Source: a virus (Duplodnaviria; Heunggongvirae; Uroviricota; Caudoviricetes). Taken from it: a DNA stretch of 64,000 bases. The notes under the pieces are model-generated. The model did not search any database and had not been told where the DNA came from. It saw nothing but the letters and a program-made list of their open reading frames with translations. Numbering within the stretch: the first letter of the stretch is position 1; the number at the start of each line of letters is the position of its first letter. A program made the translations under genes and the position numbers. Where the stretch lies: the IMG/VR virus record IMGVR_UViG_3300023697_000634; one strand, given 5' to 3'. Positions 7,913-54,586 of the stretch are shown one piece after another.

Positions 7913-9046
7913 ATGGCCACGATAACATTACCTAAGAGGGTATCAGCTTACAAGACTGCGCTGACGTCGCAGTATGGCTCGATCGCATCCAACACTGCAA
8001 ATACGGATGTGGCATTCACTACGCCTACTGTAGATAGTATCAACAACTCTACTGTGACGCAGTTGGATTTATTCGCTAATAGCATAACAGCGTTAGTTGC
8101 GAATACAACGCTGTTGCAAACACAAGTGGCAACACTGAGTACGTCTAAAGCAGATAAAGTATCCCCGACGATTGATAACGCGATACTTAACGGCAACACG
8201 TCGCTTAACGTCGTGGTCGCTAATAACTCAGTTGGTAATACTGGCCAGTACTTAGCATCTGGTGGTGGCAATACAGTGTACTGGGCAACCTTCGCGGTTG
8301 CTGGAACTCCATCACTGGATGCAGTCGCTACAGTTGGCGGAACTACCACCAAAGCGATATCGATAAGCAATACATTTGCTGCTGGTAATACTACAATTAC
8401 AGGCACAACAAACATATCGCAGCATACTAGAGTTGGTGGGATAGCAGGCAGCACGACGTCAGGAAATCAGACGTGCATTGAAGTTATGAATGGTGGCAGT
8501 ACCGGCGACTCGGATGTTGCTGCTATATCATATCATTGCAGTGGCTACTATGGTATACACCAACATCTGAGAGCAGATGGATACTTTGGTGTTGGTGGTT
8601 GGTCGGCGACGTCGTGGAGATGGTACGTCAACATGACCAACGGCGACATGACTGCTGCCGGCAACGTTACTGCATACTCTGATCCTAGACTCAAAGAAGA
8701 CATCACGCCAATTAAGTCCGCTCTTAATATTGTAAAGAGTTGGAATGGTGTTAGATATCGTTGGAAGCAGAACTCCGCTATCGGTCAGCCTGGCAAGTAC
8801 GACTATGGTATCCTGTCGCCTGATGTTGAAAAGACAGCTCCAGAACTCGTCGTCGATTCCGTATGGGAATCGGAAGATGGTGATAAGTATAAGACAGTTG
8901 CATACCAAAAGATGACTCCGTTCTTGATCGAGGCAATCAAAGAACAACAAGACATTATTGATCAACAACGTGTAATGATTGACAATCTACAAAAACAAAT
9001 AGATAATATCGTATCGCAACTTAGCGACACGCCACCTACAATATAG
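7913..9046 (+). CDS. tail fibre protein with C-terminal peptidase S74 intramolecular chaperone domain
   Basis: S/T/N-rich beta-like N-terminal region. C-terminal YSDPRLKEDITPI ... YGILSPDVEKTAPELV ... coiled coil, the canonical S74 auto-cleaving chaperone module of tail fibres and endosialidases. Confidence 0.7.
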   Translation: MATITLPKRVSAYKTALTSQYGSIASNTANTDVAFTTPTVDSINNSTVTQLDLFANSITALVANTTLLQTQVATLSTSKADKVSPTIDNAILNGNTSLNVVVANNSVGNTGQYLASGGGNTVYWATFAVAGTPSLDAVATVGGTTTKAISISNTFAAGNTTITGTTNISQHTRVGGIAGSTTSGNQTCIEVMNGGSTGDSDVAAISYHCSGYYGIHQHLRADGYFGVGGWSATSWRWYVNMTNGDMTAAGNVTAYSDPRLKEDITPIKSALNIVKSWNGVRYRWKQNSAIGQPGKYDYGILSPDVEKTAPELVVDSVWESEDGDKYKTVAYQKMTPFLIEAIKEQQDIIDQQRVMIDNLQKQIDNIVSQLSDTPPTI

Positions 9047-28469: not shown

Positions 28470-28670
28470 ATGAAATCTGGAATTGATCTTGAATTGAGCC
28501 TGGAACAAACAGGCGTCATCGTGGTGGAAGAACTGAAAGTGACTGTTGAAATCAACAGCACATATGAAGACCAACGATCGAAGGACATCGTCAAAGCAGC
28601 TGAGCTATTGCTCAGCTATTACATGACGCCAGACGAACACCGAAAGTATTTGGAACAAAAATCCAGTTGA
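28470..28670 (+). CDS. hypothetical protein
   Basis: ORF of 66 aa. Confidence 0.3.
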   Translation: MKSGIDLELSLEQTGVIVVEELKVTVEINSTYEDQRSKDIVKAAELLLSYYMTPDEHRKYLEQKSS

Positions 28671-28749
28671 TTTTGTAGTTCGGATCCTATATAATTAACC
28701 CACTGCTAGAGATAGACTTTAGCAGACCAACTATTCTAAGGAGCTTAGA

Positions 28750-29769
28750 ATGTCAAAAAAATACGACACTCTCGTCCTCATCGGACGCTTTCAACCATTC
28801 CATAACGCTCACCTTGAGATCATCAAGCGTAGCACTGCGCTCTGTAATAAACTGATTGTTATTACAGGCAGCGCAAAACAACCTCGCACATACAAGAATC
28901 CGTTCACTAGCTTTGAACGTGAGATAATGATCAAGCGTGCAACTGCAGGTCTCGCGTTGACTATCAATGTCGTCGAAAACATCGACACAATCTACAACGA
29001 CCAAGCGTGGGCCGTTCGCATCCAATCGATCGTGAATACTCTAGCATGCGATGGGGATAAGATCGGCATCATCGGTCACAAGAAAGATGACAGCTCATTT
29101 TACTTGGATATGTTCCCACAATGGGGATATGAGAACGTCGAAGAGATCACACCACTGAGTGCTGTCAACATTCGCGACCTGTACTTCAAGCGCAACTGTA
29201 ATCTCGAATTCATTCGCGGTGTGGTACCTCAAACCACTTTCGAAATCTTGCTGGACTTCAAGCAAAGCGAAGAGTATGAACAGATCATCCGCGAGCGTGA
29301 GTTTGTAGAGAACTACAAGAAGCAGTATGCATCACTCCCATATCCTCCAATCTTCAGTACTGCTGATGCTGTGGTGATCCAATCTGGTCACGTGCTAATG
29401 ATTCGTCGTCGGGCTGAGCCTGGTAAGGGTTTGTGGGCGCTTCCTGGCGGATACGTCAATGCAAACACCGATAAGAGCGTTGAGGCTGCAATGCTCCGTG
29501 AGCTCCGTGAAGAGACAAAGATCAAAGTTCCTGAGCCAGTCCTACGCGGCAACATCGTCCGCAGCAAGGTGTTCGATGCCGTCGATCGTAGTCCTCGTGG
29601 CCGCATCATCACTCATGCATTCCACATTCAGTTGCCAGATGGCGAACTACCAAAGGTCAAAGGATCTGATGATGCTGAAAAGGCACGTTGGGTTCCAATT
29701 GCTGAAGTGAAGAGCGAAGACTGCTTCGAAGACCACTTTGAAATTCTCCAACACTTCTTGGGAGCTTAA
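28750..29769 (+). CDS. natV: bifunctional NMN adenylyltransferase / Nudix hydrolase (NadM-Nudix, NatV-like)
   Basis: N-terminal LVLIGRFQPFHNAHLEII (archaeal-type NMNAT). C-terminal Nudix box GGYVNANTDKSVEAAMLRELREETKI. Confidence 0.8.
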   Translation: MSKKYDTLVLIGRFQPFHNAHLEIIKRSTALCNKLIVITGSAKQPRTYKNPFTSFEREIMIKRATAGLALTINVVENIDTIYNDQAWAVRIQSIVNTLACDGDKIGIIGHKKDDSSFYLDMFPQWGYENVEEITPLSAVNIRDLYFKRNCNLEFIRGVVPQTTFEILLDFKQSEEYEQIIREREFVENYKKQYASLPYPPIFSTADAVVIQSGHVLMIRRRAEPGKGLWALPGGYVNANTDKSVEAAMLRELREETKIKVPEPVLRGNIVRSKVFDAVDRSPRGRIITHAFHIQLPDGELPKVKGSDDAEKARWVPIAEVKSEDCFEDHFEILQHFLGA

Positions 29770-29771
29770 AA

Positions 29772-29924
29772 TGTCAGACGGACTAGATCGTTCGGGGCTA
29801 GAATGGTTCAATGAACGTGGCTATTGGGTAATCCGAAAGGTCCCTAATACCAAAGACCAATTCTACGTTGCTAGTATAGCAATTCCACCAGACAATGTTC
29901 TGGAAATTTATGGGATACTGTAAT
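29772..29924 (+). CDS. hypothetical protein (50 aa)
   Basis: ORF directly after natV. Confidence 0.25.
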
Positions 29925-30089
29925 GGGATGGACTGATTGGAATTGGATTAACGTCGCGCTTGTCTTCGTGAATGGAGCAGTGGCGTACATTTGTTTCACT
30001 GATGAGGATGTTGATCGTTCTTTCGGTGGTTGGGCAAACGTGGTTGCTAGTTCTATGAACGCTGCAATGATTGCAATAAAGGTTTTGTA

Positions 30090-30284
30090 ATGGTACGAAT
30101 TATCGATGCAACACCACACCAGAGTGTGGTCAAGAAGAAAGTCTGCCGTCACTGTGGCGTGACGTTGGAGTATGTTCCCAATGACATTCAAGAACGACGA
30201 GTTACTGATTATGATGGCAGTAGCGAACTGTTCAAGTACATCGAATGTCCTGCTTGTAAAACACACGTTGATGTGAGGTACTAA
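30090..30284 (+). CDS. zinc-ribbon protein
   Basis: CRHCGVT ... CPACKTH. Confidence 0.35.
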   Translation: MVRIIDATPHQSVVKKKVCRHCGVTLEYVPNDIQERRVTDYDGSSELFKYIECPACKTHVDVRY

Positions 30285-30285
30285 T

Positions 30286-31230
30286 ATGTGGAAAAATGTA
30301 AACGTCTTTGAAGATGAAAAAGAGCACGTTAAGAAGTATGTTTTCGAGAAAGACGATATCGCTATCGAGTCCGTTCTTTATCGTTATCCTACTTACGATG
30401 AACGCACTGTTCTCTGTATTAGTACCATGTGCGGATGCCCAATGGGTTGTCGCTTCTGTGGAACTGGTGATTATTTTGTTCGTAGTCTTACTGCGGATGA
30501 AATTGTAGGCCAAGCTGAATACATTCTCGAAACTCAAATCGGTGGTCTGAATCCTCGCGACATCAAGAAGCTGCAGATCATGGTGATGAGCATGGGCGAA
30601 CCTGCTTTGAACAAAGCTCTGGAAGAAGCATTTGATCGTTTATATGCAAAGTACCCAAATGCAGCACTGCTGATCAGCTCAAGCGGTCCTAAGGTTAGCT
30701 ACCAATGGATTATCGAAATGAGCAAACGGATTCCGACTGTCGGTTTGCAATTCAGCATTCACGAGAGTACAGACGAAGCACGCGACAAGTTGATTCCATT
30801 TGATAAGAAGTTGAACCTGCAAGAGATTGCTGATGTTGGCGTTCGCTGGCACTTGGATACTGGCCGTAAGCCATATTTCAATTACTGTGCTCACGAAGGT
30901 AATGACAAGATCGAAGACGTCCAACGACTACTCAAGTTGTACCACCCACGTATCTGGGAAGCGACTGTCTCTGTCATTTGCGAGCGTGATGCGCATGCTG
31001 AAGCAACGAACGACAAGCAACGCAACTTGGCTATTGAATTTGGTAACAAGCTGCTTGCCGAAGGATACAACGTCCGTGTGTTCGATCCAGCTGGTCAGGA
31101 TACAATCGGTGGTGGTTGTGGCCAGTTGTGGTATGTTCAAGACTGGATGAAGGATCATCCTGAGCATGTCAAGCCATCTGTTGGTTGTGGTATGCAAAAG
31201 GTCCATACACCAAAAGAATGGAACGTATGA
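30286..31230 (+). CDS. radical SAM methyltransferase, RlmN/Cfr family (lacks N-terminal accessory domain)
   Basis: LCISTMCGCPMGCRFCGTG (Cx3Cx2C), IMVMSMGEPALN (compare MMGMGEPLLN), ISSSGP, and a C-terminal GGGCGQLWYV (compare AACGQL). Both RlmN catalytic cysteines are conserved. Confidence 0.75.
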   Translation: MWKNVNVFEDEKEHVKKYVFEKDDIAIESVLYRYPTYDERTVLCISTMCGCPMGCRFCGTGDYFVRSLTADEIVGQAEYILETQIGGLNPRDIKKLQIMVMSMGEPALNKALEEAFDRLYAKYPNAALLISSSGPKVSYQWIIEMSKRIPTVGLQFSIHESTDEARDKLIPFDKKLNLQEIADVGVRWHLDTGRKPYFNYCAHEGNDKIEDVQRLLKLYHPRIWEATVSVICERDAHAEATNDKQRNLAIEFGNKLLAEGYNVRVFDPAGQDTIGGGCGQLWYVQDWMKDHPEHVKPSVGCGMQKVHTPKEWNV

Positions 31231-32018
31231 AGTTTTTGATCCAATACAATCTAATGGCAGAGTCACAACTCGAAGCAGTTAAGTCTGCAGCTCTGCCATA
31301 TCCTCACCAGTATGTTGGTGTGATTCCGTTTTCAAATGAGATCACAACAGCAGAAGGTGAAGAGATTGTTGGTACTGATTACATTCCATATGGGTCGACT
31401 CTGATGTCGACGATTGGTTTAGATTTGGGATGGAAGGGATTGTACTTCGATCTTGAGCAGTTCAATTACGAAGCTGCGGTCGCTAATCGGGATGATATGC
31501 TGAATGATGGTGCTATTATGACAGTCGAAGAGACTATCGACTTCATGCGCGCCAGCACTCAAGAACAATGGTTCATCCGTCCTTCGCTCGATCTGAAGCA
31601 TTTTGCTGGGCAGGTAATTGAACGCATAGAGTGTGTGAAGTGGTTAACACAAGCACTCAGTTGTTCATCATCTGAGACGAAACGGATGTACAAAGACATG
31701 AAGATTGTCGTTGCAACACCACAAAACATTCAAGCCGAGTGGCGTTGGTTTGTGGTCGGAGGCAAAGTGGTTGATGGGTCAATGTACCGCTCACATGGTC
31801 AATTGATCAAACAGCATGAGACTGATCCAAAAGTAATCGCTGAAGCACAAACGTTCGCCGACAAGTGGTCGCCAAACCGAAACGTCGTGATGGACTTGGC
31901 ACTTGTTGATAATGAATTGAAGGTAATTGAATTCAACTGTATCAACTGCAGTGGGTTCTACAATCACAATGTTCGTAAAATATTTGATGCACTGTATATG
32001 GAGAGTACAAAATGCTAA
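31227..32018 (+). CDS. ATP-grasp fold protein
   Basis: FIRPSLDLKHFAGQVI, EWRWFVVGGKVV and VMDLALVDNELKVIEFN resemble the ATP-grasp (RimK/GshB-like) strands. Start at MKFLIQ (ATGA overlap). Confidence 0.5.
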   Translation: MKFLIQYNLMAESQLEAVKSAALPYPHQYVGVIPFSNEITTAEGEEIVGTDYIPYGSTLMSTIGLDLGWKGLYFDLEQFNYEAAVANRDDMLNDGAIMTVEETIDFMRASTQEQWFIRPSLDLKHFAGQVIERIECVKWLTQALSCSSSETKRMYKDMKIVVATPQNIQAEWRWFVVGGKVVDGSMYRSHGQLIKQHETDPKVIAEAQTFADKWSPNRNVVMDLALVDNELKVIEFNCINCSGFYNHNVRKIFDALYMESTKC

Positions 32019-32491
32019 AGCATGTAAAAGGTAACTTACTCGATCTAGCTGAGGCTGGTCATTTTGATGTGGTCGTTCAAGGCTGCAATTGCTTCAACGC
32101 AATGGGTGGAGGGATCGCACGTGAGATTCGTGAACGCTATCCTCACGTTGCTAAGGTAGACTCTAATACTGTCCGCGGCGCATACAATAAACTAGGCAAC
32201 TGGACAAACGAACTGGTCATTCTCAAGAACGGCACAGTTTGCTTCGATGTCATTAATGCATACACTCAATACAACATGAGTACTGGTCAAGATGTATTTG
32301 AATATGCAGCGTTCGAATTAATTCTCCAAAAGCTACTATACACATATGGGGACAAGCGGATCGGATTTCCATTCATCGGTATGGGTCTTGCCCGTGGCGA
32401 TAAACAACGAATCATCGGACTGCTTGAATGGTTCGCTGATGAAATCGAGAAGCGTGGCGGTAGTGCGACGCTAGTGGAATTTCAACCATGA
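32012..32491 (+). CDS. Macro domain protein (ADP-ribose binding / hydrolase)
   Basis: KGNLLDLAEAGHFDVVVQGCNCFNAMGGGIAREI, the canonical Macro block. Confidence 0.75.
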   Translation: MLKHVKGNLLDLAEAGHFDVVVQGCNCFNAMGGGIAREIRERYPHVAKVDSNTVRGAYNKLGNWTNELVILKNGTVCFDVINAYTQYNMSTGQDVFEYAAFELILQKLLYTYGDKRIGFPFIGMGLARGDKQRIIGLLEWFADEIEKRGGSATLVEFQP

Positions 32492-32985
32492 ACATGATCA
32501 AATCCCCAAACGAGTACACCACTCGCAATAAATTCTCAATCTTCCTTGCTGGGTCGATTGAGATGGGTATGGCGGTAGATTGGCAACAGTCGATTGCCGA
32601 TGCGCTATACGACATTGATGGAGTACAGCTATTGAATCCACGACGTGATGATTGGGATTCTAGCTGGGCGCAGACAATCGAGAATCCACAATTCGCTGAG
32701 CAAGTGAGATGGGAGCTGACAGCGCTCGAGAAATCTGACTTGATCATCTATTACTTTGCACCAGGTACGCAAAGTCCAATCTCGTTGCTTGAGTTGGGGC
32801 TCTATGCAAACCACACGAAGAACATCTGGGTATGTTGTCCAGAAGGATTCTGGCGTAAGGGCAATATCGAGATCGTATGTCAACGATACATGATTCCGTT
32901 CTTCGATGATTTTGACCACATGGTGGACGATCTGAGGTACTATCTTCCGATTTGGACGGAAGATGACTACGAGCAGTTGACATAA
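32488..32985 (+). CDS. nucleoside 2-deoxyribosyltransferase-like protein (Rcl/DNPH1-like fold)
   Basis: IFLAGSIEMG and SLLELGLYANHTKNIWVCCPEG match the family's Rossmann motifs. Confidence 0.6.
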   Translation: MNMIKSPNEYTTRNKFSIFLAGSIEMGMAVDWQQSIADALYDIDGVQLLNPRRDDWDSSWAQTIENPQFAEQVRWELTALEKSDLIIYYFAPGTQSPISLLELGLYANHTKNIWVCCPEGFWRKGNIEIVCQRYMIPFFDDFDHMVDDLRYYLPIWTEDDYEQLT

Positions 32986-33013
32986 CAATGGGGTTATGCT
33001 ATACTGCAATCAA

Positions 33014-33040
33014 GCCCTCGCGATAGACGCGAGGCATTTT
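33014..33040 (+). terminator. hairpin (weak terminator) in the natV-block / nadV gap
   Basis: GCCCTCGCG-ATAGA-CGCGAGGC followed by ATTTT. TGCTATACT -10-like upstream. Confidence 0.3.
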
Positions 33041-33059: not shown

Positions 33060-34457
33060 ATGAAACTGAGCAAAAATATCTTATTGAACACAGACAGCTA
33101 CAAAGTGTCAATGTGGAAGCAATACCCTGTTGGAACAACTGGCGTATTTTCTTACATCGAATCGCGTGGCGGTCGATACGATCAAACAGTGATGTTTGGT
33201 CTGCAAGCGTTCATCAAGGAGTACTTACTTGACCCCATTACACAGTCCGACATCGATATCGCCGAAGAGATTCTTCTCGCACACGGAGAGCCATTTAATC
33301 GTAGCGGCTGGCAGTATATCCTCGACAAGCACGACGGATATCTCCCCGTCATCATCCGAGCAGTCCCCGAGGGTACTGTGGTACCGGTTAAGAATGTCCT
33401 CGCAACCATCGAGAACACAGATCCCAACGTACCGTGGCTGACTACATGGCTCGAGACTCCTTTGCTTCGTGCAATTTGGTATCCAACTACTGTGGCAACA
33501 CAGAGCTGGTCGATTCGCAAAGTGATTTTGGATTATTTGGAGAAGACTGGTGACCCTGCTCTTATCGATTTTAAGTTACACGACTTTGGTGCTCGCGGTG
33601 TTAGTTCCCTTGAGTCCGCTGGCATTGGCGGCGCCGCGCACCTCGTTAATTTCATGGGTACCGATACTGTTACCGGTTTGTTGTATGCTCGTGAGTATTA
33701 CAACGCTGGTATTAGTGGGTTTTCAATTCCTGCAGCCGAACACAGCACAATCACAAGCTGGGGTCGTGAAGGAGAAGTCGATGCCTACCGAAACATGCTT
33801 ACAAATTTCGCTCGGCCCGGGTCCATTGTTGCAGTCGTTTCCGACAGCTACGATGTATTCAATGCCGCTAGCAAATTGTGGGGAGAAGAGCTCCGTCAGC
33901 AAGTGATTGATAGCGGTGCTACTGTCGTGATTCGTCCTGATAGTGGTGACCCTGTTGAAGTTAACCGCAAGTTGATTGAGATCTTAGGAGAAAAGTTTGG
34001 ATACACTACAAACGCCAAAGGATTCAAAGTCCTCAATAATGTTCGCCTCATCCAGGGGGACGGTGTCAATGAGTTATCCATCCGCAGTATCCTTGGGGCA
34101 CTCATGGCAATGGGATGGTCAGCAGATAACATTGCATTCGGTATGGGCGGTGCCTTGCTCCAGCAAGTCGACCGAGATACCCAGAAGTTCGCAATGAAGT
34201 GTTCTTCTGCCAAGATTAATGACGTATGGGTCGATGTACAAAAAGATCCAATCACTGATAGTGGTAAGAAGTCGAAGGCAGGCCGAGTTACTCTTTGGAA
34301 GAGTGGCGGCGAATGGATCAGTAGCGTCGAAAAGCCAGCTGGCTGGCACGACAAGGCAACTGGTGAGTTCGTCGAAGTACTGGAAACAGTATACGCTAAC
34401 GGAAAGTTGATTAACGAATATACATTCGACAACATCCGAGCAAGAGCTCGCAAATAA
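33060..34457 (+). CDS. nadV: nicotinamide phosphoribosyltransferase (Nampt, NadV-like)
   Basis: 465 aa. NAPRTase-family core, with blocks DSYD and RPDSGDP. Strong RBS AAGGAGATTAACATG. Confidence 0.8.
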   Translation: MKLSKNILLNTDSYKVSMWKQYPVGTTGVFSYIESRGGRYDQTVMFGLQAFIKEYLLDPITQSDIDIAEEILLAHGEPFNRSGWQYILDKHDGYLPVIIRAVPEGTVVPVKNVLATIENTDPNVPWLTTWLETPLLRAIWYPTTVATQSWSIRKVILDYLEKTGDPALIDFKLHDFGARGVSSLESAGIGGAAHLVNFMGTDTVTGLLYAREYYNAGISGFSIPAAEHSTITSWGREGEVDAYRNMLTNFARPGSIVAVVSDSYDVFNAASKLWGEELRQQVIDSGATVVIRPDSGDPVEVNRKLIEILGEKFGYTTNAKGFKVLNNVRLIQGDGVNELSIRSILGALMAMGWSADNIAFGMGGALLQQVDRDTQKFAMKCSSAKINDVWVDVQKDPITDSGKKSKAGRVTLWKSGGEWISSVEKPAGWHDKATGEFVEVLETVYANGKLINEYTFDNIRARARK

Positions 34458-34994: not shown

Positions 34995-35189
34995 ATGGAA
35001 TACACATTAGTAATTTGGACAGTCGTTGCTGCGTTCGGTACAGGAGCTGGCACATACAAGCCGCAAGAGTATCGCGATTGGCGACCGATAGCCGTTTTCA
35101 ATAATGGTGGTGCTCAATCGTTGCATCATTGTCACGCAGCTGCTGAACAATTGAAGCTGCAAAAATTTGAATGTATCAGAACCAAGTGA
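34995..35189 (+). CDS. hypothetical protein
   Basis: ORF of 64 aa. Confidence 0.3.
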   Translation: MEYTLVIWTVVAAFGTGAGTYKPQEYRDWRPIAVFNNGGAQSLHHCHAAAEQLKLQKFECIRTK

Positions 35190-35199
35190 AGGAAAGAAA

Positions 35200-36237
35200 A
35201 TGCGTAAACTTGCATCCATTCGTCGCATTGACGAACTGAACCCTATTGAGGGTGCCGACAAAATTGAAGTGGCCACTGTTGGTGGTTGGAAGGTCGTGTG
35301 CCAAAAAGGTCTCTACGTGGTTGGCGATCTTGCTGTATACTTTGAAATCGATTCGTTTATCCCAACGGCCGTCGCTCCGTTCCTAACAAAGGAAGGTCAC
35401 TATCCGAAGGTGTTTGAAAGAGTCGAGGGCGAACGTTTGAAGACAATCAAGCTGCGTGGCCAGTTGTCTCAAGGTTTGCTGATTCCGTTGAAAGAGATTG
35501 TGCCACTCTTCCCTGATAGCGAGTTCGATGAAGGTCAGGAGCTGATGGAGTTCTTCCGAGAAGATGCCGACATGACTGAATTTCTCGGTATCCTGAAATG
35601 GGAGAAGGCAATTCCTGCTCAGCTCGCTGGTATTTCTCGTGGCAACTTTCCAACTTTGATTCCAAAGACTGACCAAGAGCGTGTGCAAAACTTGAAGAAA
35701 GAGATTGCTGCTGCTCAAGGACAAGTATACGAAGTAACGGAGAAGCTGGAAGGCTCTTCGATGACTTGCTATGTGATTGATGGTGAGTTCGGAGTGTGCT
35801 CCCGTAACCTCAACCTCAAGGAAACTGAGGGCAACTCATTCTGGATTGCAGCTCGCGACAATGACCTTGAGCAAAAGATGCTTGCTCGTCAGTATGACTT
35901 CGCAATCCAAGGTGAGTTGATTGGTCCTGGAGTTCAAGGTAACATCTACAAATTGACAAAGCCTGAGTTCTATGTGTTTGACATCTATGATGTTAAGGAC
36001 GGCGAGTATATGAATCCAGCTGCACGTCGCCAACTGGTCGAGTCTCTTGGCCTGAAGCATGTGCCGATTCTGGACGATATGTATGTCCTTAACGATGATG
36101 TAGAACAACTGTTGACATTGGCTGAAGGCAAGTCTAGAATGTTTGATACGGAACGAGAAGGCATCGTGTTCAAACAGAATGACGGTGGCATGACGTTCAA
36201 AGCGATCTCGAACAAGTACCTATTGAACGAGAAGTGA
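35200..36237 (+). CDS. RNA ligase, Rnl5/DRB0094-like family
   Basis: N-terminal OB-like module, EKLEGSS (KxxG nucleotidyltransferase motif I candidate) and C-terminal FKAISNKYL. RBS AAGGAAAG. Confidence 0.55.
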   Translation: MRKLASIRRIDELNPIEGADKIEVATVGGWKVVCQKGLYVVGDLAVYFEIDSFIPTAVAPFLTKEGHYPKVFERVEGERLKTIKLRGQLSQGLLIPLKEIVPLFPDSEFDEGQELMEFFREDADMTEFLGILKWEKAIPAQLAGISRGNFPTLIPKTDQERVQNLKKEIAAAQGQVYEVTEKLEGSSMTCYVIDGEFGVCSRNLNLKETEGNSFWIAARDNDLEQKMLARQYDFAIQGELIGPGVQGNIYKLTKPEFYVFDIYDVKDGEYMNPAARRQLVESLGLKHVPILDDMYVLNDDVEQLLTLAEGKSRMFDTEREGIVFKQNDGGMTFKAISNKYLLNEK

Positions 36238-36256
36238 TTTAAGTTTTCTCCCCTTT

Positions 36257-36282
36257 GCGCCGGCTTGACCGGCGTTCTTTTT
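36257..36282 (+). terminator. Rho-independent terminator
   Basis: CGCCGG-CTTGA-CCGGCG followed by TTCTTTTT. Confidence 0.5.
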
Positions 36283-36636
36283 ATGAACAATCCACTAATA
36301 TTCATCACAGATATGCTCGCTGCAGCAAAGAAGTCCTATCAGGCTGCTGTGGAAGAGCGCAAGAAGAGAGAGCATAACGCTGAGCGTAAGCGGATCGCCA
36401 AGCACTTCAACAACTACTACACATACCGCCACCGTTTCGACACATCAAGCGACGAACGGCTGGACGGAACAGGGATGTGGGGCTTCACGCCAAAAAAAGG
36501 AAATGCGTGGATGTGTCCAACGTGCAATAAGATCCACTTGGCATCGAGCTGTAGTGCATTTTCCGGTCTGCAGTATCCACATTGCTGTGAGTATAGATCA
36601 CACCACAGGCTATACAACGACATCAGAACGCAATGA
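36283..36636 (+). CDS. Cys/His-cluster (zinc-binding) protein
   Basis: CPTCNKIH ... C ... HCC. Start at the ATG after the terminator (the track start at 36265 is a TTG). Confidence 0.35.
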   Translation: MNNPLIFITDMLAAAKKSYQAAVEERKKREHNAERKRIAKHFNNYYTYRHRFDTSSDERLDGTGMWGFTPKKGNAWMCPTCNKIHLASSCSAFSGLQYPHCCEYRSHHRLYNDIRTQ

Positions 36637-37160
36637 CGCCGCTATCGGAACACCTCAAGCAACGACACTTGGACATCGATCTCCACCGTCCAGTGATAGA
36701 CGAGGTGGATAGAATTGCTACGTTCTATTTGTGGAACCTTAGTGGTGCGCTGGTGGGGTTCCAACAATATCGTCCAGAGGGCGAAAAGAAGATCAACAAT
36801 AACCCCAAAGAAGGCAAGTACTACACCTATAAGAAGCAACCTACGATTGCTGTATGGGGCGTAGAATCGCTTTACCTTTCCTCGCACGTTGTGTTTATTA
36901 CGGAAGGTGTGTTTGACGCTGCTAGGCTAACTGAACGAGGATATAGCGCGCTAGCAATGCTGACGAACAATCCAACTGCAGATTATCGTAACTGGTTGAC
37001 GTTCTTGAATAGGACTGTCGTTGCAGTATGCGACAATGATAAAGCTGGTAGGAAATTAGCAGCGTTCGGTGATGTTGTAATTTTTACCGAAGATAAAGAT
37101 CTTGGCGATAGTGATGATGAATATGTCACTAATTTGCTATTGCCATATAAACTGTACTAA
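36633..37160 (+). CDS. TOPRIM-domain protein (DnaG-core-like)
   Basis: VVFITEGVFDA (TOPRIM Glu) and VAVCDNDKAGRK (DxD). Confidence 0.5.
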   Translation: MTPLSEHLKQRHLDIDLHRPVIDEVDRIATFYLWNLSGALVGFQQYRPEGEKKINNNPKEGKYYTYKKQPTIAVWGVESLYLSSHVVFITEGVFDAARLTERGYSALAMLTNNPTADYRNWLTFLNRTVVAVCDNDKAGRKLAAFGDVVIFTEDKDLGDSDDEYVTNLLLPYKLY

Positions 37161-37174
37161 AGGATAATGTGATT

Positions 37175-37735
37175 ATGAAAACATTTATTACATCAGACAT
37201 TCACTTCGGACATAAGAACATTATGAGCTTTTGTCCAGTATCGCGTGCTCGCTTCAAGGGCGACGTGGACTATATGAACGCTCAGATCATCCAAGACTGG
37301 AATAACATGATTGGCCCAGACGACTTGGTGTACATCTTGGGTGACGTTGCATTCTGCTCATGGGAAAAGGCAGTTGGTTTCTTGCGTTCGATGAATGGTC
37401 GCAAGATTTTGATCAAGGGCAACCATGACAGCAAGCTCGTTAAGAGTCCAGAGTTCGTTGCCTGCTTCGAAAGCATTCACGACTACTTGACAATTACATA
37501 TAACGGTACTCGGGTATCGATGTTCCACTACCCGATCGCTGAGTGGGATCAGATGCACCGAGGTGCTGTCCACTTCTACGGTCACTTGCATGGTGGCACT
37601 AGCGGATTGGAAAAGTACCGAGCAATCGATGTTGGTATGGATGGCAATATGTGCTACCCACATGACATGGATGTTGCTGTGGCAATGGCATTGAAGGGCG
37701 ACATCAAAAAGCACCACGACAAATATGGGAACTAA
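37175..37735 (+). CDS. calcineurin-like metallophosphoesterase
   Basis: ITSDIHFGH, ILGDVAF, GNHD and GHLHGG metal-ligand blocks. ATG after AAGGA (the track start is a GTG). Confidence 0.7.
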   Translation: MKTFITSDIHFGHKNIMSFCPVSRARFKGDVDYMNAQIIQDWNNMIGPDDLVYILGDVAFCSWEKAVGFLRSMNGRKILIKGNHDSKLVKSPEFVACFESIHDYLTITYNGTRVSMFHYPIAEWDQMHRGAVHFYGHLHGGTSGLEKYRAIDVGMDGNMCYPHDMDVAVAMALKGDIKKHHDKYGN

Positions 37736-37736
37736 C

Positions 37737-38207
37737 ATGAGCAAATTGAAATGCATTCAATTGGTTGGCGTGCCTGGATCAGGAAAGTCAACATGGATCA
37801 AAACACAAACAATGATCGACAACTTCGTTGTTGCGTCTACTGATAACTTCGTTGAGCAGCATGCTGCTAAAGAAGGCAAGACGTATAATGAAGTGTTCAA
37901 GGACTACATGCCGATCGCTGTGAGGTTGATGGCAAACCAAGTGTTGATTGCGCAAGCGAACAACAAGAACATCATTTGGGATCAAACGTCAATGAGCGTT
38001 GCATCTCGTAAGAAGAAGTTCAACACAATTCCCAACTACGAACACATCGCTGTTGTGTTCCCCGTTCCTGGTGAGGAAGAGTTGGCACGTCGGTTGGCAA
38101 GCCGTCCAGGAAAGTTGATTCCAGATCATGTTATGAAAAGCATGATTGACAGCTTCGAGATGCCGACTCTTGAAGAAGGGTTCACTGAAGTTCACGTTTT
38201 GCTGTAA
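37737..38207 (+). CDS. P-loop polynucleotide kinase-like protein (T4 Pnk kinase-domain-like)
   Basis: IQLVGVPGSGKSTW (compare T4 Pnk GCPGSGKSTW). 156 aa. Confidence 0.6.
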   Translation: MSKLKCIQLVGVPGSGKSTWIKTQTMIDNFVVASTDNFVEQHAAKEGKTYNEVFKDYMPIAVRLMANQVLIAQANNKNIIWDQTSMSVASRKKKFNTIPNYEHIAVVFPVPGEEELARRLASRPGKLIPDHVMKSMIDSFEMPTLEEGFTEVHVLL

Positions 38208-38218
38208 GGAGTATCGAA

Positions 38219-38479
38219 ATGGTAGTATTTCCAAAAGAGTTCGTTGCGATTCGTTATCCAGGCTACTTCTGGCACACGGTCGAGAAGCGTTTGTACACAA
38301 TCAAAGTGTCTGGTGAACTCCGTCCATTGAAATTCTGCCGTGGTGGTACATTCTATGGCAAAACAATTGAGCCTGGTTATCGCGTAAGCGTTCAAGGTGT
38401 ACGTAAGAAAGTATCGATGTCCTATCTGGGCAGCATTGGCGACTCGTGGGTGCAACAAGAGATTCCATATGAAAGTTAA
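38219..38479 (+). CDS. hypothetical protein
   Basis: ORF of 86 aa. Confidence 0.3.
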   Translation: MVVFPKEFVAIRYPGYFWHTVEKRLYTIKVSGELRPLKFCRGGTFYGKTIEPGYRVSVQGVRKKVSMSYLGSIGDSWVQQEIPYES

Positions 38480-39356
38480 TTCAGAATCGTTAAAGAAGTT
38501 CGTTGAAGAAAATCCAAAGCTGGTCTCTCGTCGACCAGCCGGCGATGGCATTTACGTCCTGAAATACAAAAAGACTGTATTCTATGATGGTTTGTGGAAC
38601 GATTACTTAGAAGAGTGTCGTGGTATGATTGTGGATGAAGATTACAACATCGTGTCATACCCATTCACGAAGGTATACAACTATGGCGTAGAAGCGAAGT
38701 CGCCTGTGTTGGATGGCAGCACGAAGATCAAGGCATACCGTAAAGTTAATGGCTTTATGGTCGCTGTAACGTGGCATAAAGACGATATCCTTGTGTCAAC
38801 TACAGGATCGACGGACTCCGATTATGTAAAAATGGCTCGTGAGTTTATCGATCGTGATTTGGATCTATACCGTGCTTGGTGTAAGGAATATTCGACATAC
38901 ACATTCATGTTTGAGTGTGTCCATAAGGATGATCCGCACATCATTCCAGAAGTGGAAGGGATGTATTTGCTAGGACACCGTCCAAAGTTCTTTGGTTCGC
39001 CAATTGGTGTGTCTGACGACATGCACAAGGCATTCAACTGCCATTCGGTTGAAGCAATTGAGTGTACGTTAGATACACTACGTTCGTTGGCTAAGACGGT
39101 GAGGCACGAAGGGTTCGTATTCTATACGTTGGACGGCATGATAGGCTCTAAGATCAAGAGTCCACATTACCTAGTGTCTAAGTTTGTTGCTCGTAATCCA
39201 CGAACTGACAAATTGATGCGTCCAGATGTGAAGAAGTCGCTCGATGAGGAGTATTATCCATTAATCGATGCCATCCAAGCGAACATCGATGCATATACTG
39301 CTATGGACGAACAGACGCGACTATCGTGGGTGAGGGAGTTTCTTTCAGCTCAATGA
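38469..39356 (+). CDS. RNA ligase 1 (T4 RnlA-like)
   Basis: LEECRGMIVDEDYNIVSYPFTKVYNYGV ... AYRKVNGFMVAVTW parallels T4 Rnl1 LECRGIMFE ... KFFNLNE ... TKEDGSLVSTY. Start at MKVNSE. Confidence 0.6.
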   Translation: MKVNSESLKKFVEENPKLVSRRPAGDGIYVLKYKKTVFYDGLWNDYLEECRGMIVDEDYNIVSYPFTKVYNYGVEAKSPVLDGSTKIKAYRKVNGFMVAVTWHKDDILVSTTGSTDSDYVKMAREFIDRDLDLYRAWCKEYSTYTFMFECVHKDDPHIIPEVEGMYLLGHRPKFFGSPIGVSDDMHKAFNCHSVEAIECTLDTLRSLAKTVRHEGFVFYTLDGMIGSKIKSPHYLVSKFVARNPRTDKLMRPDVKKSLDEEYYPLIDAIQANIDAYTAMDEQTRLSWVREFLSAQ

Positions 39357-43032: not shown

Positions 43033-43218
43033 ATGAAAATCTTGGCTCTGATTCTCGCTGCAGCAGCATTGACTGCTTGTGGTAAGATTGATCGCACGAT
43101 CGCTAGCTTTACTGGCGATGCATCGAAGACGTGCGTTGACGGTGTTACGTATCTCCAGTTCACATCTGGTGCTGCTCCTCAATACACAATTGACGGCAAA
43201 CTTGTTTCTTGCAAATGA
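43033..43218 (+). CDS. small lipoprotein
   Basis: LILAAAALTACG lipobox. Confidence 0.4.
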   Translation: MKILALILAAAALTACGKIDRTIASFTGDASKTCVDGVTYLQFTSGAAPQYTIDGKLVSCK

Positions 43219-43229
43219 AAGGCAATCAA

Positions 43230-44021
43230 ATGAAACGACTGTTTATCTTGGCTACGATTTTGTTCGGGGTCTTCCTGACAGGTTGTACTCGAATTGAATC
43301 TGGTACTGTCGGCTTGCGAGTCGATATGTCACGACAAATCCAAGGGGTTGAATTGCAACCTGGTTCTTGGAATCAAACTCTGATCGGTAGCGTGCTTGAA
43401 TTCCAAGTTCGTTCGATCCCTACTGGTTGGGAAAATCTGCGACCACAAACTGCTGATAACTCAACTCTGAAAGACTTCGATATCAATATCATCTATGAAG
43501 TCAATCCAGCTTCAGTGTCTGAATTGTGGACAAATCAATCACGTTCATTCCACACATACGAACATGGTGACTGGATGCTGATGCGCAACTATATGTCTCA
43601 AGCATTGAACTCTGCTACTGCAAAAGCAGTACGTAAGTACAAAGCGCTGGAAGTTGCTGACCGTCGCAGCGATATCGAAAAAGATGTCCACGATATCTTG
43701 ATGGATATGCTGAAAGAAGAAAAGCTCGAAAAGGCTTTGACTGTCAGCCAAGTCCGTGTGACGAATGCTACACCAGCAGACGACATCGTCGCATCCGCTA
43801 ACGCTGCAGTTCGTGCTCAGAACGATCTGCGAACAAAGCAAATTGAAGTTGATATTGCGAAGCAAGAAGCTATCCGTATCCAAACTTTGAACAGCAACTC
43901 ACAAGCTATTCCATACATGAACGCAATGGCTCAGATGGAAATCGCTAAAGCTATTCGCGAAGGTAAGGTTAACACAGTCGTCATCCCTCAAGACTTCAAA
44001 GGTCTTGTGAACGTCAAGTAA
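43230..44021 (+). CDS. SPFH/band-7 (prohibitin-like) lipoprotein
   Basis: Lipobox LTGCT. ESGTVGLRVDMSRQIQGVELQPGSW resembles the SPFH core. C-terminal coiled coil. Confidence 0.55.
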   Translation: MKRLFILATILFGVFLTGCTRIESGTVGLRVDMSRQIQGVELQPGSWNQTLIGSVLEFQVRSIPTGWENLRPQTADNSTLKDFDINIIYEVNPASVSELWTNQSRSFHTYEHGDWMLMRNYMSQALNSATAKAVRKYKALEVADRRSDIEKDVHDILMDMLKEEKLEKALTVSQVRVTNATPADDIVASANAAVRAQNDLRTKQIEVDIAKQEAIRIQTLNSNSQAIPYMNAMAQMEIAKAIREGKVNTVVIPQDFKGLVNVK

Positions 44022-51653: not shown

Positions 51654-51928
51654 GTAACGCATGGAACTATATGGTAGATCATTTGTCAGGTGATCTCGAT
51701 TTCCTCAAGGAAAAAGATGAGAAGTATGTTGCGGACGCAATGTCGATTCTTGTAGAGAATGTGTTACTCCATCCTGAGTCGATTATTACATACCATCCAA
51801 CACAATGGGGTAAGACAGCATTGACGTATGATCAATTTGCAGCTCAGTTCTACCCGAACTTGTCTGGTGAAGAGTTAGACGGCGTTTGTAAGCCACAATA
51901 TCAAATGTACTTGGAAGGATTGCAATGA
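51650..51928 (+). CDS. hypothetical protein
   Basis: ORF starting at MSNAW. Confidence 0.3.
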   Translation: MSNAWNYMVDHLSGDLDFLKEKDEKYVADAMSILVENVLLHPESIITYHPTQWGKTALTYDQFAAQFYPNLSGEELDGVCKPQYQMYLEGLQ

Positions 51929-52284
51929 GCATTCTAGCACAAGCAGCAATAAAGACAGCTAAAGAAGTTGGGATGGGATTGTTGTTATTCGCGTTCATAG
52001 CAATGTTCTTGTTGTTGGCAGCATTTGCTCCATTATATGCAGCTGTTCTTTTAATTGTGGTACTGATATCAGGAGTATTCTATGGCAACTACCAAATCGC
52101 CCGCCGCGAAAAAGAGCTTGAAGAAGCCCGCACCAAAACCAAGCTCGACTACAAAGAGCTCGTCAAGCGCATCGAAGAAAACAACAACATCTTCCAGTCC
52201 GGTAGCTCGCCCAAAGCCGGCAGTGAAGTCAAAATCACCTGCACCGGTGGTTGTTCCGGATGTGGAGATAAGTCCACCAGTTGA
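51925..52284 (+). CDS. membrane plus coiled-coil protein with CxxC tail
   Basis: Two TM helices, then a charged helix and CTGGCSGCGD. Overlaps the next ORF by 200 nt in another frame. Confidence 0.35.
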   Translation: MSILAQAAIKTAKEVGMGLLLFAFIAMFLLLAAFAPLYAAVLLIVVLISGVFYGNYQIARREKELEEARTKTKLDYKELVKRIEENNNIFQSGSSPKAGSEVKITCTGGCSGCGDKSTS

Positions 52285-53705: not shown

Positions 53706-53856
53706 CTTGACAGTCGTCGATAAGGCGGCATTTGAAGTTGCGATTATGCAAGCGATGGTGCTTTCAGTGCAGAACCTTGCACGCCAGGTTGAGCAGTTGA
53801 CTATACGTGTCGAGCGCCTAGAAGGAAATGATGATGGAAAAGATATTTCGCAGTAA
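53683..53856 (+). CDS. hypothetical protein (57 aa)
   Basis: Short ORF with a coiled-coil-like sequence. Confidence 0.2.
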   Translation: MNTTIESDLTVVDKAAFEVAIMQAMVLSVQNLARQVEQLTIRVERLEGNDDGKDISQ

Positions 53857-54586
53857 GTGGGCTAAGCTAACAATCAGTCGCTATATGCACTGGACCATCA
53901 AGTATGAAGTGCCTTCTGATGATTGTGATTCGTGGGAATGGGACAATGAGCGACCACACGGCCAACGTGCAATTCATCGCGCATGGATTATCATTGGCAT
54001 TGGACGTTTGTTTTTCCAACTGTACTTGTGGAAGGTAACACCATTCGAAGGCAGCTGGGATGGTGATAATACGAAGCAATATGGCATTACATACTTCGAA
54101 CGATCGCTCCATGTTCATTGGGGCCGCACTAAGGTTTATTGGTTGCCTTGGGATTGGAAGATCGTCCGTCACGACTTGCTTCATATGGATGGCAGTCTCT
54201 ACTATCGCAACTCATACCCAATCAAGAAAAGATCATATTCTTGGTATGAAGTATTGGAGATGAAAGAATCACCATTCCCTAGGTCGGATGTTCAAACACA
54301 AGTTGCAGATTACGTTGAACTCACTCACTACACTAAGGATGGTCGCAAGCAAGTAGCAATGATCCGACTCGTTGGTGAAGAGCGCGAATGGAGATGGCGT
54401 TGGTTTAGCTGGCTGCCGTGGCCAAGACAAATCAGTCGAGTTGTCGATTGTTCATCTGACGTTGAGCTCGGCGAAAGGGCTGGCTCATGGAAGGGTGGGA
54501 TGATGGGTTGGAGTGCTCCCTTAGAAAAGGGACAGTCTTTGAGAGAAGCATTCTATGCATGGTACAGGAAGTGGGACGGCCGATGA
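53828..54586 (+). CDS. Trp-rich hypothetical protein
   Basis: 252 aa with an unusually high Trp content. Confidence 0.35.
   Translation: MMMEKIFRSKWAKLTISRYMHWTIKYEVPSDDCDSWEWDNERPHGQRAIHRAWIIIGIGRLFFQLYLWKVTPFEGSWDGDNTKQYGITYFERSLHVHWGRTKVYWLPWDWKIVRHDLLHMDGSLYYRNSYPIKKRSYSWYEVLEMKESPFPRSDVQTQVADYVELTHYTKDGRKQVAMIRLVGEEREWRWRWFSWLPWPRQISRVVDCSSDVELGERAGSWKGGMMGWSAPLEKGQSLREAFYAWYRKWDGR

Follow-up and report, generated by a model that had tools for sequence, protein, structure and literature searches.

Depletion of NAD+ is among the commonest strategies by which bacteria resist phages, and the phage pathways that reconstitute it, NARP1, NARP2 and NARP3, have been described only from 2024 onward. 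NARP2 is a two-gene pathway of Vibrio phage KVP40 that consists of a Nampt and an Nmnat (Osterman et al. 2024, bioRxiv 10.1101/2024.02.11.579819). In the NARP1-AP pathway of Vibrio phage Gary (Adps-Adpp-Namat; Osterman et al. 2026, bioRxiv 10.64898/2026.01.28.702374), Adpp turns ADP-ribose-1''-phosphate (ADPR-1P) into ADP-ribose (ADPR) and is required against the aRES defence system. In bacteria, the NrtR regulon has been described with only prs and nadV listed as its members (Rodionov et al. 2008, PMC2330246).

The genes for a Macro domain protein and for NDT2, a protein of Pfam family PF15891, lie within an NAD+-rebuilding operon of the NARP2 type in the genome of a jumbo phage. The window (the whole stretch of DNA analysed, 64 kb) contains the following features in this region:

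28667..28695, + strand: putative sigma-70-like promoter TTGATT-17-TATAAT (10 of 12 matches), intergenic, upstream of natV
28750..29769, + strand: NatV, bifunctional NMN adenylyltransferase and Nudix hydrolase (Nmnat half of NARP2)
29771..30284, + strand: three small ORFs of 50, 55 and 64 aa
30286..31230, + strand: radical SAM protein related to RlmN/Cfr RNA methyltransferases (Pfam Radical_SAM, 2e-08)
31227..32018, + strand: R2K-clade ATP-grasp protein (Pfam R2K_3, 6.6e-21)
32012..32491, + strand: Poa1p/Adpp-like Macro domain protein (159 aa), predicted ADPR-1''-phosphate phosphatase
32488..32985, + strand: NDT2 (165 aa), PF15891 nucleoside 2-deoxyribosyltransferase-like, predicted N-glycosidase/transglycosidase
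within 32977..33034, + strand: putative near-consensus promoter TTGACA-17-TATACT with TG (11 of 12 matches), overlapping the NDT2 stop
33016-33034, + strand: GC-rich hairpin (7-bp stem, 6 GC pairs) and T-run, after the promoter at the NDT2 stop
33060..34457, + strand: NadV, nicotinamide phosphoribosyltransferase (Nampt half of NARP2)

The two ORFs on which the original prediction was built, 159 and 165 aa long and spanning 32012-32985 on the + strand, are present, as is their proposed ATGA coupling, in which the NDT2 start (ATG, 32488-32490) overlaps the Macro stop (TGA, 32489-32491). Upstream, the Macro ATG (32012) is overlapped by the ATP-grasp stop (TAA, 32016-32018) as ATGCTAA, and the ATP-grasp ATG at 31227 by the radical SAM stop as ATGA. 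Other metagenomic contigs, as long as 238 kb, encode identical Macro and NDT2 proteins, so that both genes are real and conserved and not chance ORFs. The promoter at 28667..28695, a consensus match of a kind that is not above shuffled expectation in the region, is likely the start of a transcription unit ending after NDT2. The pattern matches at 32977..33034 would then mark the boundary between this unit and nadV. The radical SAM protein scores 3.2e-29 against the NCBIfam RlmN model TIGR00048, under the model cut-off, and both its gene and the ATP-grasp gene are lineage-specific insertions; the latter is called as a 263-aa gene in related loci L004-L007 and is missing from L008 and L011. The 64-aa ORF is zinc-ribbon-like and belongs to a cluster of 64/65-aa neighbours (c21) seen in six viral loci with related operons. 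As the 7.6-kb region gave no INPHARED match by megablast and the closest cultured-phage Nampt is 60% identical to NadV, no cultured phage is a close relative. Neither tRNA genes nor Rfam matches were found within the 64-kb window, which also contains an Acb3-like anti-CBASS gene.

Assignment of the operon to NARP2 depends on its two flanking enzymes. NatV matches CTP_transf_like (2.5e-11) and NUDIX (6.2e-20) in Pfam, passes NCBIfam NF003788 (368.6 bits; cut-off 354) and is 35% identical to the Nmnat(-Nudix) protein of KVP40 (E 3e-61). NadV matches NAMPT_N (1.9e-28) and NAPRTase (3.8e-63) and passes NF006629 with 655 bits (cut-off 405). Its identity is 50% to KVP40 Nampt, compared with 38% to the Namat of SPbetaL1 and 31% to that of Gary, and its bit scores follow the same order (366 for KVP40 Nampt, 238 and 128 for two Namat references). 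By sequence NadV is thus of the Nampt type and not of the Namat type, and with the nearby Nmnat it makes up the NARP2 gene set.

The Macro protein, encoded between NatV and NadV, carries both motifs reported for it earlier, GNLLD and NAMGGGIAREI, and has the macrodomain fold with two glycine-rich ADPR-binding loops. Its match to Pfam PF01661 lies below the gathering score (17.5 bits against 22, E 0.0041), and PHROG 335 matches at 4.7e-34. Among characterised proteins its closest sequence relatives are the ADPR-1''-phosphate phosphatases Gary Adpp (33% identity over 141 residues, E 1e-18) and yeast Poa1p (E 1e-4). The QY and GLAxGD motifs are common to Macro and Adpp, and Ser30 of Poa1p is replaced by Ala in Macro and by Arg in Adpp. 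By these similarities Macro is very probably an ADPR-1''-phosphate phosphatase. The suggestion that it is a DarG-like antitoxin, which would strip ADP-ribose from DarT-modified DNA or protein while NDT2 clears the resulting nucleotides, could draw on the Macro fold, which is equally close to DarG and to Poa1p, but is very improbable in view of the sequence comparisons. Similarity to DarG is far weaker (0.39), the score for the DarG equivalog NF048014 is 19 bits where 250 are required, and Pfam and PHROG scans of the eight to nine surrounding genes revealed no DarT-like family, the direct neighbours of Macro being ATP-grasp and NDT2. In addition, Ala127 of Macro aligns with Asp125 of TARG1 (taken as an approximate reference sequence), and residues 82-93, where the catalytic Lys of TARG1/DarG would be expected from an uncertain alignment to the same sequence, contain no Lys. 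Both features are shared with the validated phosphatase Adpp.

For the second protein, the earlier call of an N-glycosidase fold stood, while its assignment to PF05014 was inexact. NDT2 matches PF15891 (Nuc_deoxyri_tr2) over the whole model length with 120.4 bits (cut-off 30, E 5.2e-35), and this was the only family reported in the Pfam scan, PF05014 not being among the matches. A few close NDT2 homologs are annotated with both families in precomputed Pfam data. In an hhalign comparison of low probability with an approximate template sequence, the LLE102LG segment of NDT2 pairs with GME98LG of the Lactobacillus enzyme. E102, kept in 99% of 136 NDT2-family sequences, is therefore the predicted equivalent of the Glu nucleophile of deoxyribosyltransferases, and many other polar residues of the family are invariant. 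A PDB profile search with the NDT2 alignment returned a single entry, 4MCJ (BDI_0649 of Parabacteroides distasonis), which the window protein itself matches at E 3.6e-25. The search for PF15891 homologs gave more than 8000, and the predicted N-glycosidase family they form is extremely conserved: sampled phage and bacterial copies of NDT2 share 52-65% identity. In the Tunturi_5 genome, NDT2 is part of a large protein with an ADP-ribosyltransferase domain whose gene adjoins the portal gene. A second fusion, recognised by fold similarity, is with a Nudix protein of a giant virus. Long NDT2 fusions in GC-rich bacterial loci were mostly artefacts of upstream open frames, and a signal-peptide scan of NDT2 ORFs gave a single convincing case (locus L096).

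Gene neighbourhoods were sampled as the 80 best NDT2 matches per scan, a choice that favours relatives of the window protein. Relatives with an NDT2 of only 60-65% identity retain the order NatV-(x)-Macro-NDT2-Nampt, among them the compact locus L011 with NatV, a 72-aa ORF, Macro, NDT2 and Nampt and with neither radical SAM nor ATP-grasp. Of the most closely related Nampt loci, 59 extend far enough upstream to be compared; all encode NatV, 29 this Macro in the same position and 6 NDT2, which is therefore optional in related NARP2 operons. Unbiased clustering of neighbours in 160 NDT2 loci (best 80 per scan) placed Nampt/Namat-like proteins first (67 loci), followed by Prs/Adps-like (45), Nudix (34), Poa1-like Macro (25), NADAR (19), Tpt1 (11), Metallophos (10) and MacroD (9) clusters. 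A Nampt/Namat-like gene lies no more than 3 kb away, in every case on the NDT2 strand, in 23 of 46 viral (IMG/VR) and 14 of 54 bacterial non-redundant loci from the same best-80 samples. Some of these partners are of the Nampt type known from NARP2, others of the NARP1 type with Namat and Adps. About half of the loci in these samples have no NAD-related neighbour, and in some cultured phages such as RsoM2USA NDT2 and Nampt are far apart. In the non-NAD contexts of Herpetosiphon, Micavibrio and a gammaproteobacterial MAG, the neighbours (Dam-like methylase, ValRS, ABC transporters) are unrelated and gave no clue to a substrate. Only 46 of 50,697 INPHARED records contain NDT2, none of them from Vibrio, Escherichia or Bacillus.

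In bacteria the operon takes the form NrtR-Adps-like-NADAR-Tpt1-Metallophos-NDT2-Namat-like-Macro. Chromosomal operons of this NrtR-regulated kind in Bacteroidota and other bacteria encode an NDT2 that is 52-58% identical to that of the window, and their Adps-like and Namat-like proteins are 34-43% and 51-61% identical to Adps and Namat references. In the 64-kb window itself, searches with family profiles for Prs/Adps, NADAR and Tpt1 yielded no homolog. A further idea sees NDT2 as a nucleotide hydrolase akin to Rcl/DNPH1 or MilB, with a role in shaping the (deoxy)nucleotide pool, that came to lie near nadV only through a variable early-gene region. We give it little credence, since very different phages and bacterial NrtR operons of differing gene order repeatedly show the link to Nampt/Namat-like genes, which one inherited insertion cannot account for.

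The operon context reframes the function of the pair as NAD+ reconstitution. The original prediction had rightly paired a Macro with an N-glycosidase-fold protein in ADP-ribose chemistry and had missed the NARP2 setting of NatV...Macro-NDT2 followed by NadV. On balance, Macro and NDT2 are probably accessory components of a NARP2-type operon that return non-canonical NAD+ breakdown products to salvage. They would be expressed together with natV from one promoter. By homology to the tested enzyme, an Adpp/Poa1p-type Macro would take the 1''-phosphate off ADPR-1P and release ADPR, the substrate being a compound that arises from RES-type NADases, Tpt1-type RNA repair or decay of 1''-activated ADPR. 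The Nudix domain, with an activity known for KVP40-type NatV, would split ADPR into AMP and ribose-5-phosphate, host Prs would convert the latter to PRPP for Nampt, and Nmnat would complete NAD+. However, NARP2 alone reportedly overcame aRES (bioRxiv 10.64898/2026.01.28.702374), which places the need of NARP2 for a phosphatase in doubt.

NDT2, judged by its fold, conserved residues and gene context, would be an active N-glycosidase or transglycosidase in which E102 attacks the anomeric carbon of a 5-phosphoribosyl N-glycoside from NAD+ turnover, the parts re-entering salvage. Of three candidate reactions, the first preference would be (a) cleavage of N-linked ADPR compounds, for instance cyclic ADPR, to free ADPR, although N-linked cyclic ADPR is not known as a major product of bacterial NADases. 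The second would be (b) cleavage that frees nicotinamide from NMN or NR, but cleavage of NMN would be futile beside Nmnat. The third would be (c) conversion of AMP or another NMP to base and ribose-5-phosphate for PRPP, but partners of the NARP1 type have no use for a supply of ribose-5-phosphate. The net effect would be that the phage rebuilds NAD+ after its destruction in the host by non-canonical routes. Perhaps, and we put this forward tentatively as the less probable version, PF15891 is a missing enzyme of NAD+ reconstitution that acts on N-glycosidic NAD+-derived products unusable by NARP1 or NARP2, such as variants of cyclic ADPR, ADPR compounds with an exchanged base, or stray NMN. It could do so by hydrolysis, or by base exchange with nicotinamide that re-forms NAD+ or NMN directly.

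The same chemistry could serve RNA-repair housekeeping, with Macro clearing the ADPR-1P left by Tpt1-type removal of 2'-phosphates in tRNA repair, NDT2 contributing to the same chemistry and the NAD genes replacing consumed NAD+. Poa1p holds exactly this role in yeast, Tpt1 is found in 10 of the 54 non-redundant bacterial NDT2 loci (best 80 per scan), Thg1-like and HAD_SAK_2 RNA-repair domains are among the neighbours of NDT2, and two RNA ligases, a Pnkp-like kinase and a phosphoesterase are encoded within 6 kb downstream in the window. As neither the window nor any of the best 80 viral NDT2 loci yielded a Tpt1 homolog, this purpose is rather unlikely for the phage operon; it differs from the preferred reading in purpose and not in mechanism.

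Degradation of immune signals, raised in the original prediction, is not the best-supported reading either. The pair would here destroy or sequester NAD+-derived messengers (gcADPR isomers, His-ADPR) and thereby prevent any triggering of Thoeris-like systems. NDT2 shares its fold with TIR, SLOG and ADP-ribosyl cyclases, proteins that produce or bind signals of this kind (PMC9503650), an Acb3-like anti-CBASS gene is present in the same window, and the position of the Tunturi_5 fusion gene beside the portal gene suggests early delivery. Yet the tightest partner of NDT2 is a nicotinamide-using transferase and not a signalling gene, and anti-Thoeris activity makes little sense for the related proteins of bacterial chromosomal NrtR operons, which renders this function improbable.

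If PF15891 does supply a missing step, it would add a new and widespread layer to the NAD+ arms race of environmental phages. In bacteria, NDT2 with Macro, NADAR, ADP-ribosylglycohydrolase and Tpt1 would then form an NrtR-controlled route that returns all ADPR-type products to NAD+. The substrate of PF15891 would probably reveal another NAD+-derived metabolite relevant to phage-host conflict or to bacterial NAD+ recycling. The literature searched contained no paper linking NDT2 (PF15891) to NAD+ salvage genes, nor did it describe two observations made here: that an ADPR-1''-phosphate phosphatase, so far tied to NARP1 only, is also frequent in NARP2 operons (about half of this lineage), and that PF15891 repeatedly accompanies NARP genes of either type as well as Adps/Namat-like operons under NrtR control in bacteria. 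The near absence of the family from cultured-phage collections may explain why it was overlooked. The survey by Iyer et al. 2022 (PMC9503650) states only cyclase-type members of the superfamily for viruses and thus does not cover the NDT2 family.

Compared with known systems, Macro differs from DarG/TARG1 ADP-ribosyl glycohydrolases by lacking a DarT partner and the TARG1-type Asp. From yeast Poa1p (PDB 6LFQ-6LFU) it differs by its low overall identity and its setting, which is phage infection and not tRNA splicing. NDT2 belongs to another Pfam family than the PF05014 NDTs, Rcl/DNPH1 and MilB, shares only 10-19% identity with them, is marked by invariant motifs not found in them (NPRRxxWD, QVxWE and CCPEGFWRKGN) and occurs in a context of NAD+/ADPR metabolism and not of deoxynucleoside salvage. 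Its structural relative 4MCJ, a structural-genomics entry with no assigned function, lacks several residues invariant in the NARP-linked subfamily: WDSSW of the subfamily corresponds to GLSG in 4MCJ, and FWRKGN to FYRYDN. At the operon level, the window resembles NARP2 of KVP40 in encoding both enzymes on one strand, about 3.3 kb apart, but places Macro and NDT2 between them, and its lineage also inserts the radical SAM and ATP-grasp genes. KVP40 itself is without NDT2, given that no Vibrio phage in INPHARED matches it. With NARP1-AP the window shares a Poa1p-like Macro within an NAD+ reconstitution operon, although the partner pathway is NARP2 and not NARP1, and NDT2 is not mentioned in the NARP1-AP paper (bioRxiv 10.64898/2026.01.28.702374). 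Finally, the bacterial NDT2 operons resemble the NrtR regulon nrtR-prs-nadV (PMC2330246) in their first genes, which encode an NrtR-like Nudix regulator and then Prs-like and NadV-like proteins. They differ from it in that these proteins resemble Adps and Namat and in having NDT2, NADAR, Tpt1, Metallophos and Macro as extra members.

The window, gene-dense and on the + strand, is an early region of a jumbo phage not in culture. Contigs as long as 238 kb carry identical genes, and an INPHARED search found no close relative of the phage. A Macro gene translationally coupled to the gene for a Rossmann protein had been predicted, and both ORFs lie where they were placed, with ATGA at 32488-32491 comprising the Macro stop and the ATG of NDT2 (a PF15891, Nuc_deoxyri_tr2, protein). 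Overlaps continue upstream with ATGCTAA at 32012-32018 (ATP-grasp stop, Macro start) and ATGA at 31227-31230 (radical-SAM stop, ATP-grasp start). Absent from the original prediction was the context, in which the NAD+ salvage genes for NatV and NadV flank the pair:

28750-29769, +, NatV, NMN adenylyltransferase + Nudix (passes NCBIfam NF003788; 35% identity to Nmnat of Vibrio phage KVP40)
30286-31230, +, RlmN/Cfr-like radical SAM protein (overlap-chained to the Macro-NDT2 pair; absent from relative locus L011)
31227-32018, +, R2K-clade ATP-grasp protein (overlap-chained to the pair; absent from L008 and L011)
32012-32491, +, Macro, 159 aa
32488-32985, +, NDT2, 165 aa
33060-34457, +, NadV (NF006629, 655 bits; identity 50% to KVP40 Nampt vs 38% and 31% to two Namat references)

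Nampt (NadV) and Nmnat (NatV) form the published phage pathway NARP2 (bioRxiv 10.1101/2024.02.11.579819), and on sequence and context Macro and NDT2 are part of a NARP2 operon. Pattern matches alone mark a promoter-like site upstream of natV, and a near-consensus promoter with a hairpin between NDT2 and nadV. The order NatV-(x)-Macro-NDT2-Nampt is conserved in relatives whose NDT2 is 60-65% identical. As the compact relative cluster L011 (NatV, a 72-aa ORF, Macro, NDT2, Nampt) lacks the radical SAM and ATP-grasp genes, these are lineage-specific insertions; their products are possible modifiers of host RNA or of translation factors. Shortly 3' of nadV lies an RNA-repair-like set (35167-39356, +), and no Tpt1 homolog was found across the 64-kb window:

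35167-36237, +, PHA02142-type RNA ligase
37175-37735, +, Metallophos-like protein
37725-38207, +, Pnkp-like P-loop kinase
38469-39356, +, Rnl1-type RNA ligase

Elsewhere, a Peptidase_S74 (endosialidase chaperone) ORF of 377 aa (7913-9046, +) sits between the genes for the large and small ribonucleotide reductase subunits, which is unusual for a domain of tail-fibre type.

A sequence search of the PDB places the yeast ADPR-1''-phosphate phosphatase Poa1p first for Macro (E 1e-4), with DarG at only 0.39. A Poa1p-like Macro named Adpp, found in 15% of operons of NARP1 (the Adps + Namat pathway), catalyses the conversion of ADPR-1''-phosphate to ADPR, and thanks to it NARP1 overcomes aRES, a RES-domain NADase that yields ADPR-1''-phosphate (2026 preprint, Sorek laboratory, 10.64898/2026.01.28.702374). 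Adpp of Vibrio phage Gary, its sequence taken from the supplement of that preprint, is 33% identical to Macro across 141 residues (E 1e-18). Joint alignment reveals xYxQY and GLAxGD motifs common to both. In this alignment, loose in these parts, Macro Ala127 pairs with TARG1 Asp125 and no Lys occurs in Macro residues 82-93. The proposed DarG/DarT relationship was not borne out, as Macro scores 19 bits with the DarG equivalog model, far below the cut-off of 250, and no DarT gene was found among the surrounding genes. Given this and the homology to Adpp and Poa1p, Macro is filed as a predicted Adpp/Poa1p-type phosphatase, and the Macro-NDT2 system is not a DarTG-like module.

The view from Nampt was taken in the IMG/VR loci whose NadV is nearest to that of the window (L180-L258, 74-99% identity), 59 of which have enough upstream sequence. 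NatV is present in 59/59 of these loci and a Poa1p/Adpp-like Macro lies between NatV and Nampt in 29; NDT2 is optional, occurring in six, each time with Macro. NARP2 operons thus commonly include an Adpp-like gene, a membership not yet described, published work tying the phosphatase to NARP1 only. NARP2 alone cancels aRES (10.64898/2026.01.28.702374). Perhaps the benefit of Macro in NARP2 is that ADPR-1''-phosphate may be recycled via the Nudix domain of NatV to ribose-5-phosphate and PRPP; alternatively, Macro may clear a harmful metabolite. By homology to the tested enzyme, Macro would convert ADPR-1''-phosphate to ADPR; as known for KVP40-type enzymes, NatV would then split ADPR into AMP and ribose-5-phosphate, and Nampt followed by NatV would turn PRPP and nicotinamide into NMN and NAD+. 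A likely second counter-defence gene of the window (53828-54586, +) encodes a 252-aa protein matching the CBASS inhibitor Acb3 (Pfam 3.1e-29, above gathering score).

The loci of NDT2 relatives were fetched from bacteria (80) and IMG/VR (80), in each case the 80 best matches of a scan; ORFs were called at all 160, and family profiles were made from window genes and two bacterial operons. Neighbours were ranked by unbiased clustering of all genes within 4 kb.

Recurrent neighbours within 4 kb of NDT2, best 80 + 80 loci
Nampt/Namat-like: 67 loci
Prs/Adps-like: 45 loci
Nudix (NrtR or NatV): 34 loci
Poa1-like Macro: 25 loci
NADAR: 19 loci
Tpt1: 11 loci
Metallophos: 10 loci
MacroD: 9 loci

ADP-ribosylglycohydrolase, 2OG-Fe(II) oxygenase, HAD_SAK_2, Thg1-like, Band_7 and AAA proteins also recur. 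With NDT2 sequences collapsed at 90% identity, and only loci kept that have 3 kb of flanking sequence on either side, a Nampt/Namat-like gene lies within 3 kb of NDT2 in 23/46 viral and 14/54 bacterial loci. This partner shares the strand of NDT2 in every case and often directly adjoins it (29/80 viral loci). Typed against the references in Table S4 of 10.64898/2026.01.28.702374, seven of the viral partners are Nampt-type with NatV alongside (NARP2), and 16 viral and 14/14 bacterial partners are Namat-type (51-61% identity to SPbetaL1 Namat in bacteria, about 38-65% in viruses). Since the Prs-like proteins beside the latter resemble Gary Adps (30-43% identity), these loci are NARP1-like. At L013:3511-5863, L134:10458-12715 and L176:2661-5083 the Namat-like gene is in two ORFs separated by an opposite-strand ORF or gap, as would result from insertion of an intron, intein or homing endonuclease, or from a frameshift in the assembly. 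In 11 loci the stretch from the Adps-like gene to NDT2 or Namat encodes a ~145-aa protein that has a DxDxT (HAD-like) motif but matches no Pfam family (e.g. L032:9573-10001, L102, L109, L121, L133); Macro is usually absent from these loci, and the protein may be an alternative phosphatase. A Band_7/SPFH protein is encoded directly 5' of the Adps-like gene in eight viral NDT2 loci (including L102, L109, L156, L158, L170 and L176); the window Band_7 gene (43215-44021, +) is ~10 kb from the NAD cluster.

The typical bacterial operon reads NrtR-Adps-like-NADAR-Tpt1-Metallophos-NDT2-Namat-like-Macro, and in some cases PnuC and a NadR-like gene come next. NrtR-led operons, mostly from Bacteroidota (L014, L016-L018, L020-L024, L028, L029, L031, L032, L034, L037, L040, L042, L069, L071, L076, L087, L093, L095), encode Adps-like and Namat-like proteins (34-43% and 51-61% identity to the phage enzymes) and variously NADAR, Tpt1, Metallophos, 2OG-Fe(II) oxygenase, ADP-ribosylglycohydrolases, Macro genes and NDT2. 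The NrtR regulon was listed in 2008 as only nrtR-prs-nadV (Rodionov et al. 2008, PMC2330246), and chromosomal NARP1 of some bacteria was left unexplained in 2024 (bioRxiv 10.1101/2024.02.11.579819). These operons look like chromosomal NARP1 ringed by ADPR-releasing enzymes. In the window, 51892-52284 (+) faintly matches a PnuC profile built from a single sequence of a bacterial NrtR operon; E 1.8e-4 does not suffice to name its product a nicotinamide riboside transporter.

The NDT2 family is large (>8000 homologs) and conservation is striking, with sampled phage and bacterial copies 52-65% identical. Among 136 distinct sequences, F19, A21, G22, S23, W32, Q33, N50, P51, R52, R53, W56, D57, Q62, W75, E76, P97, E102, G104, C117, P118, R123, G125 and N126 are 97-100% conserved. 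In a weak hhalign match (probability 11.7%, E 0.0025) to Lactobacillus deoxyribosyltransferase, E102 aligns with Glu98, the nucleophile, while Asp72 is the counterpart of E76. Given the conserved residues and the E102/Glu98 pairing, NDT2 is most likely an active enzyme working at an anomeric carbon. Under the same weak alignment Ser96, only 86% conserved, takes the position of Asp92, where Rcl, which binds a 5'-phosphate, also has Ser; the substrate sugar is possibly a 5-phosphorylated ribose.

Fold and context suggest that NDT2 would cleave or exchange the base on a phosphoribosyl N-glycoside of NAD+ turnover, and since it accompanies both Nampt and Namat, the compound supplied or removed ought to be relevant to both. 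Release of ADPR from N-linked ADPR compounds, e.g. cyclic ADPR, would be consistent with every NDT2 context and with the other ADPR-releasing enzymes nearby, although the abundance of such substrates in bacteria is doubtful. Freeing nicotinamide from NMN or NR would fit the tight adjacency to a nicotinamide-using enzyme and one secreted homolog, from Stenotrophomonas, with a Sec-type signal peptide ahead of it (L096:8393-10468), but would be futile beside Nmnat. Cleavage of AMP or another NMP to base and ribose-5-phosphate would suit the PRPP need of NARP2 and a Nudix fusion (Foldseek detects an NDT2-like fold, E 2.9e-9, in a 412-aa protein of Klosneuvirus that bears the name Nudix hydrolase), yet be useless to NARP1. 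Were the base exchanged for nicotinamide, NAD+ or NMN would be regained in one step, but this has no specific support. Like the Klosneuvirus protein, a fusion in a phage ties NDT2 to ADPR chemistry, and further architectures are also unusual: an N-terminal NDT2 domain is joined to an ART-PolyVal ADP-ribosyltransferase in gp225 of Tunturiibacter phage Tunturi_5 (L002:5989-9777), adjoining the portal gene, and one copy carries a C-terminal LuxR-type HTH (L072:2961-3908).

The association with NAD genes has limits. About half of the sampled NDT2 loci are without an NAD-related neighbour, and NDT2 and Nampt are >100 kb apart in RsoM2USA and 7 kb apart on opposite strands in CcrColossus. Among cultured phages NDT2 is rare: INPHARED has 46 records with it, and phages of Vibrio, Escherichia and Bacillus are not represented. 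It may thus have been overlooked until now.

The Macro half is largely explained by recent work. The PF15891 half, as a lead, is well supported and points to a step of NAD+/ADPR recycling that has not been described. Compared with NARP1-AP, the Adps-Adpp-Namat system of Gary, the window system would work analogously, like an extended NARP2 with one more enzyme, NDT2.
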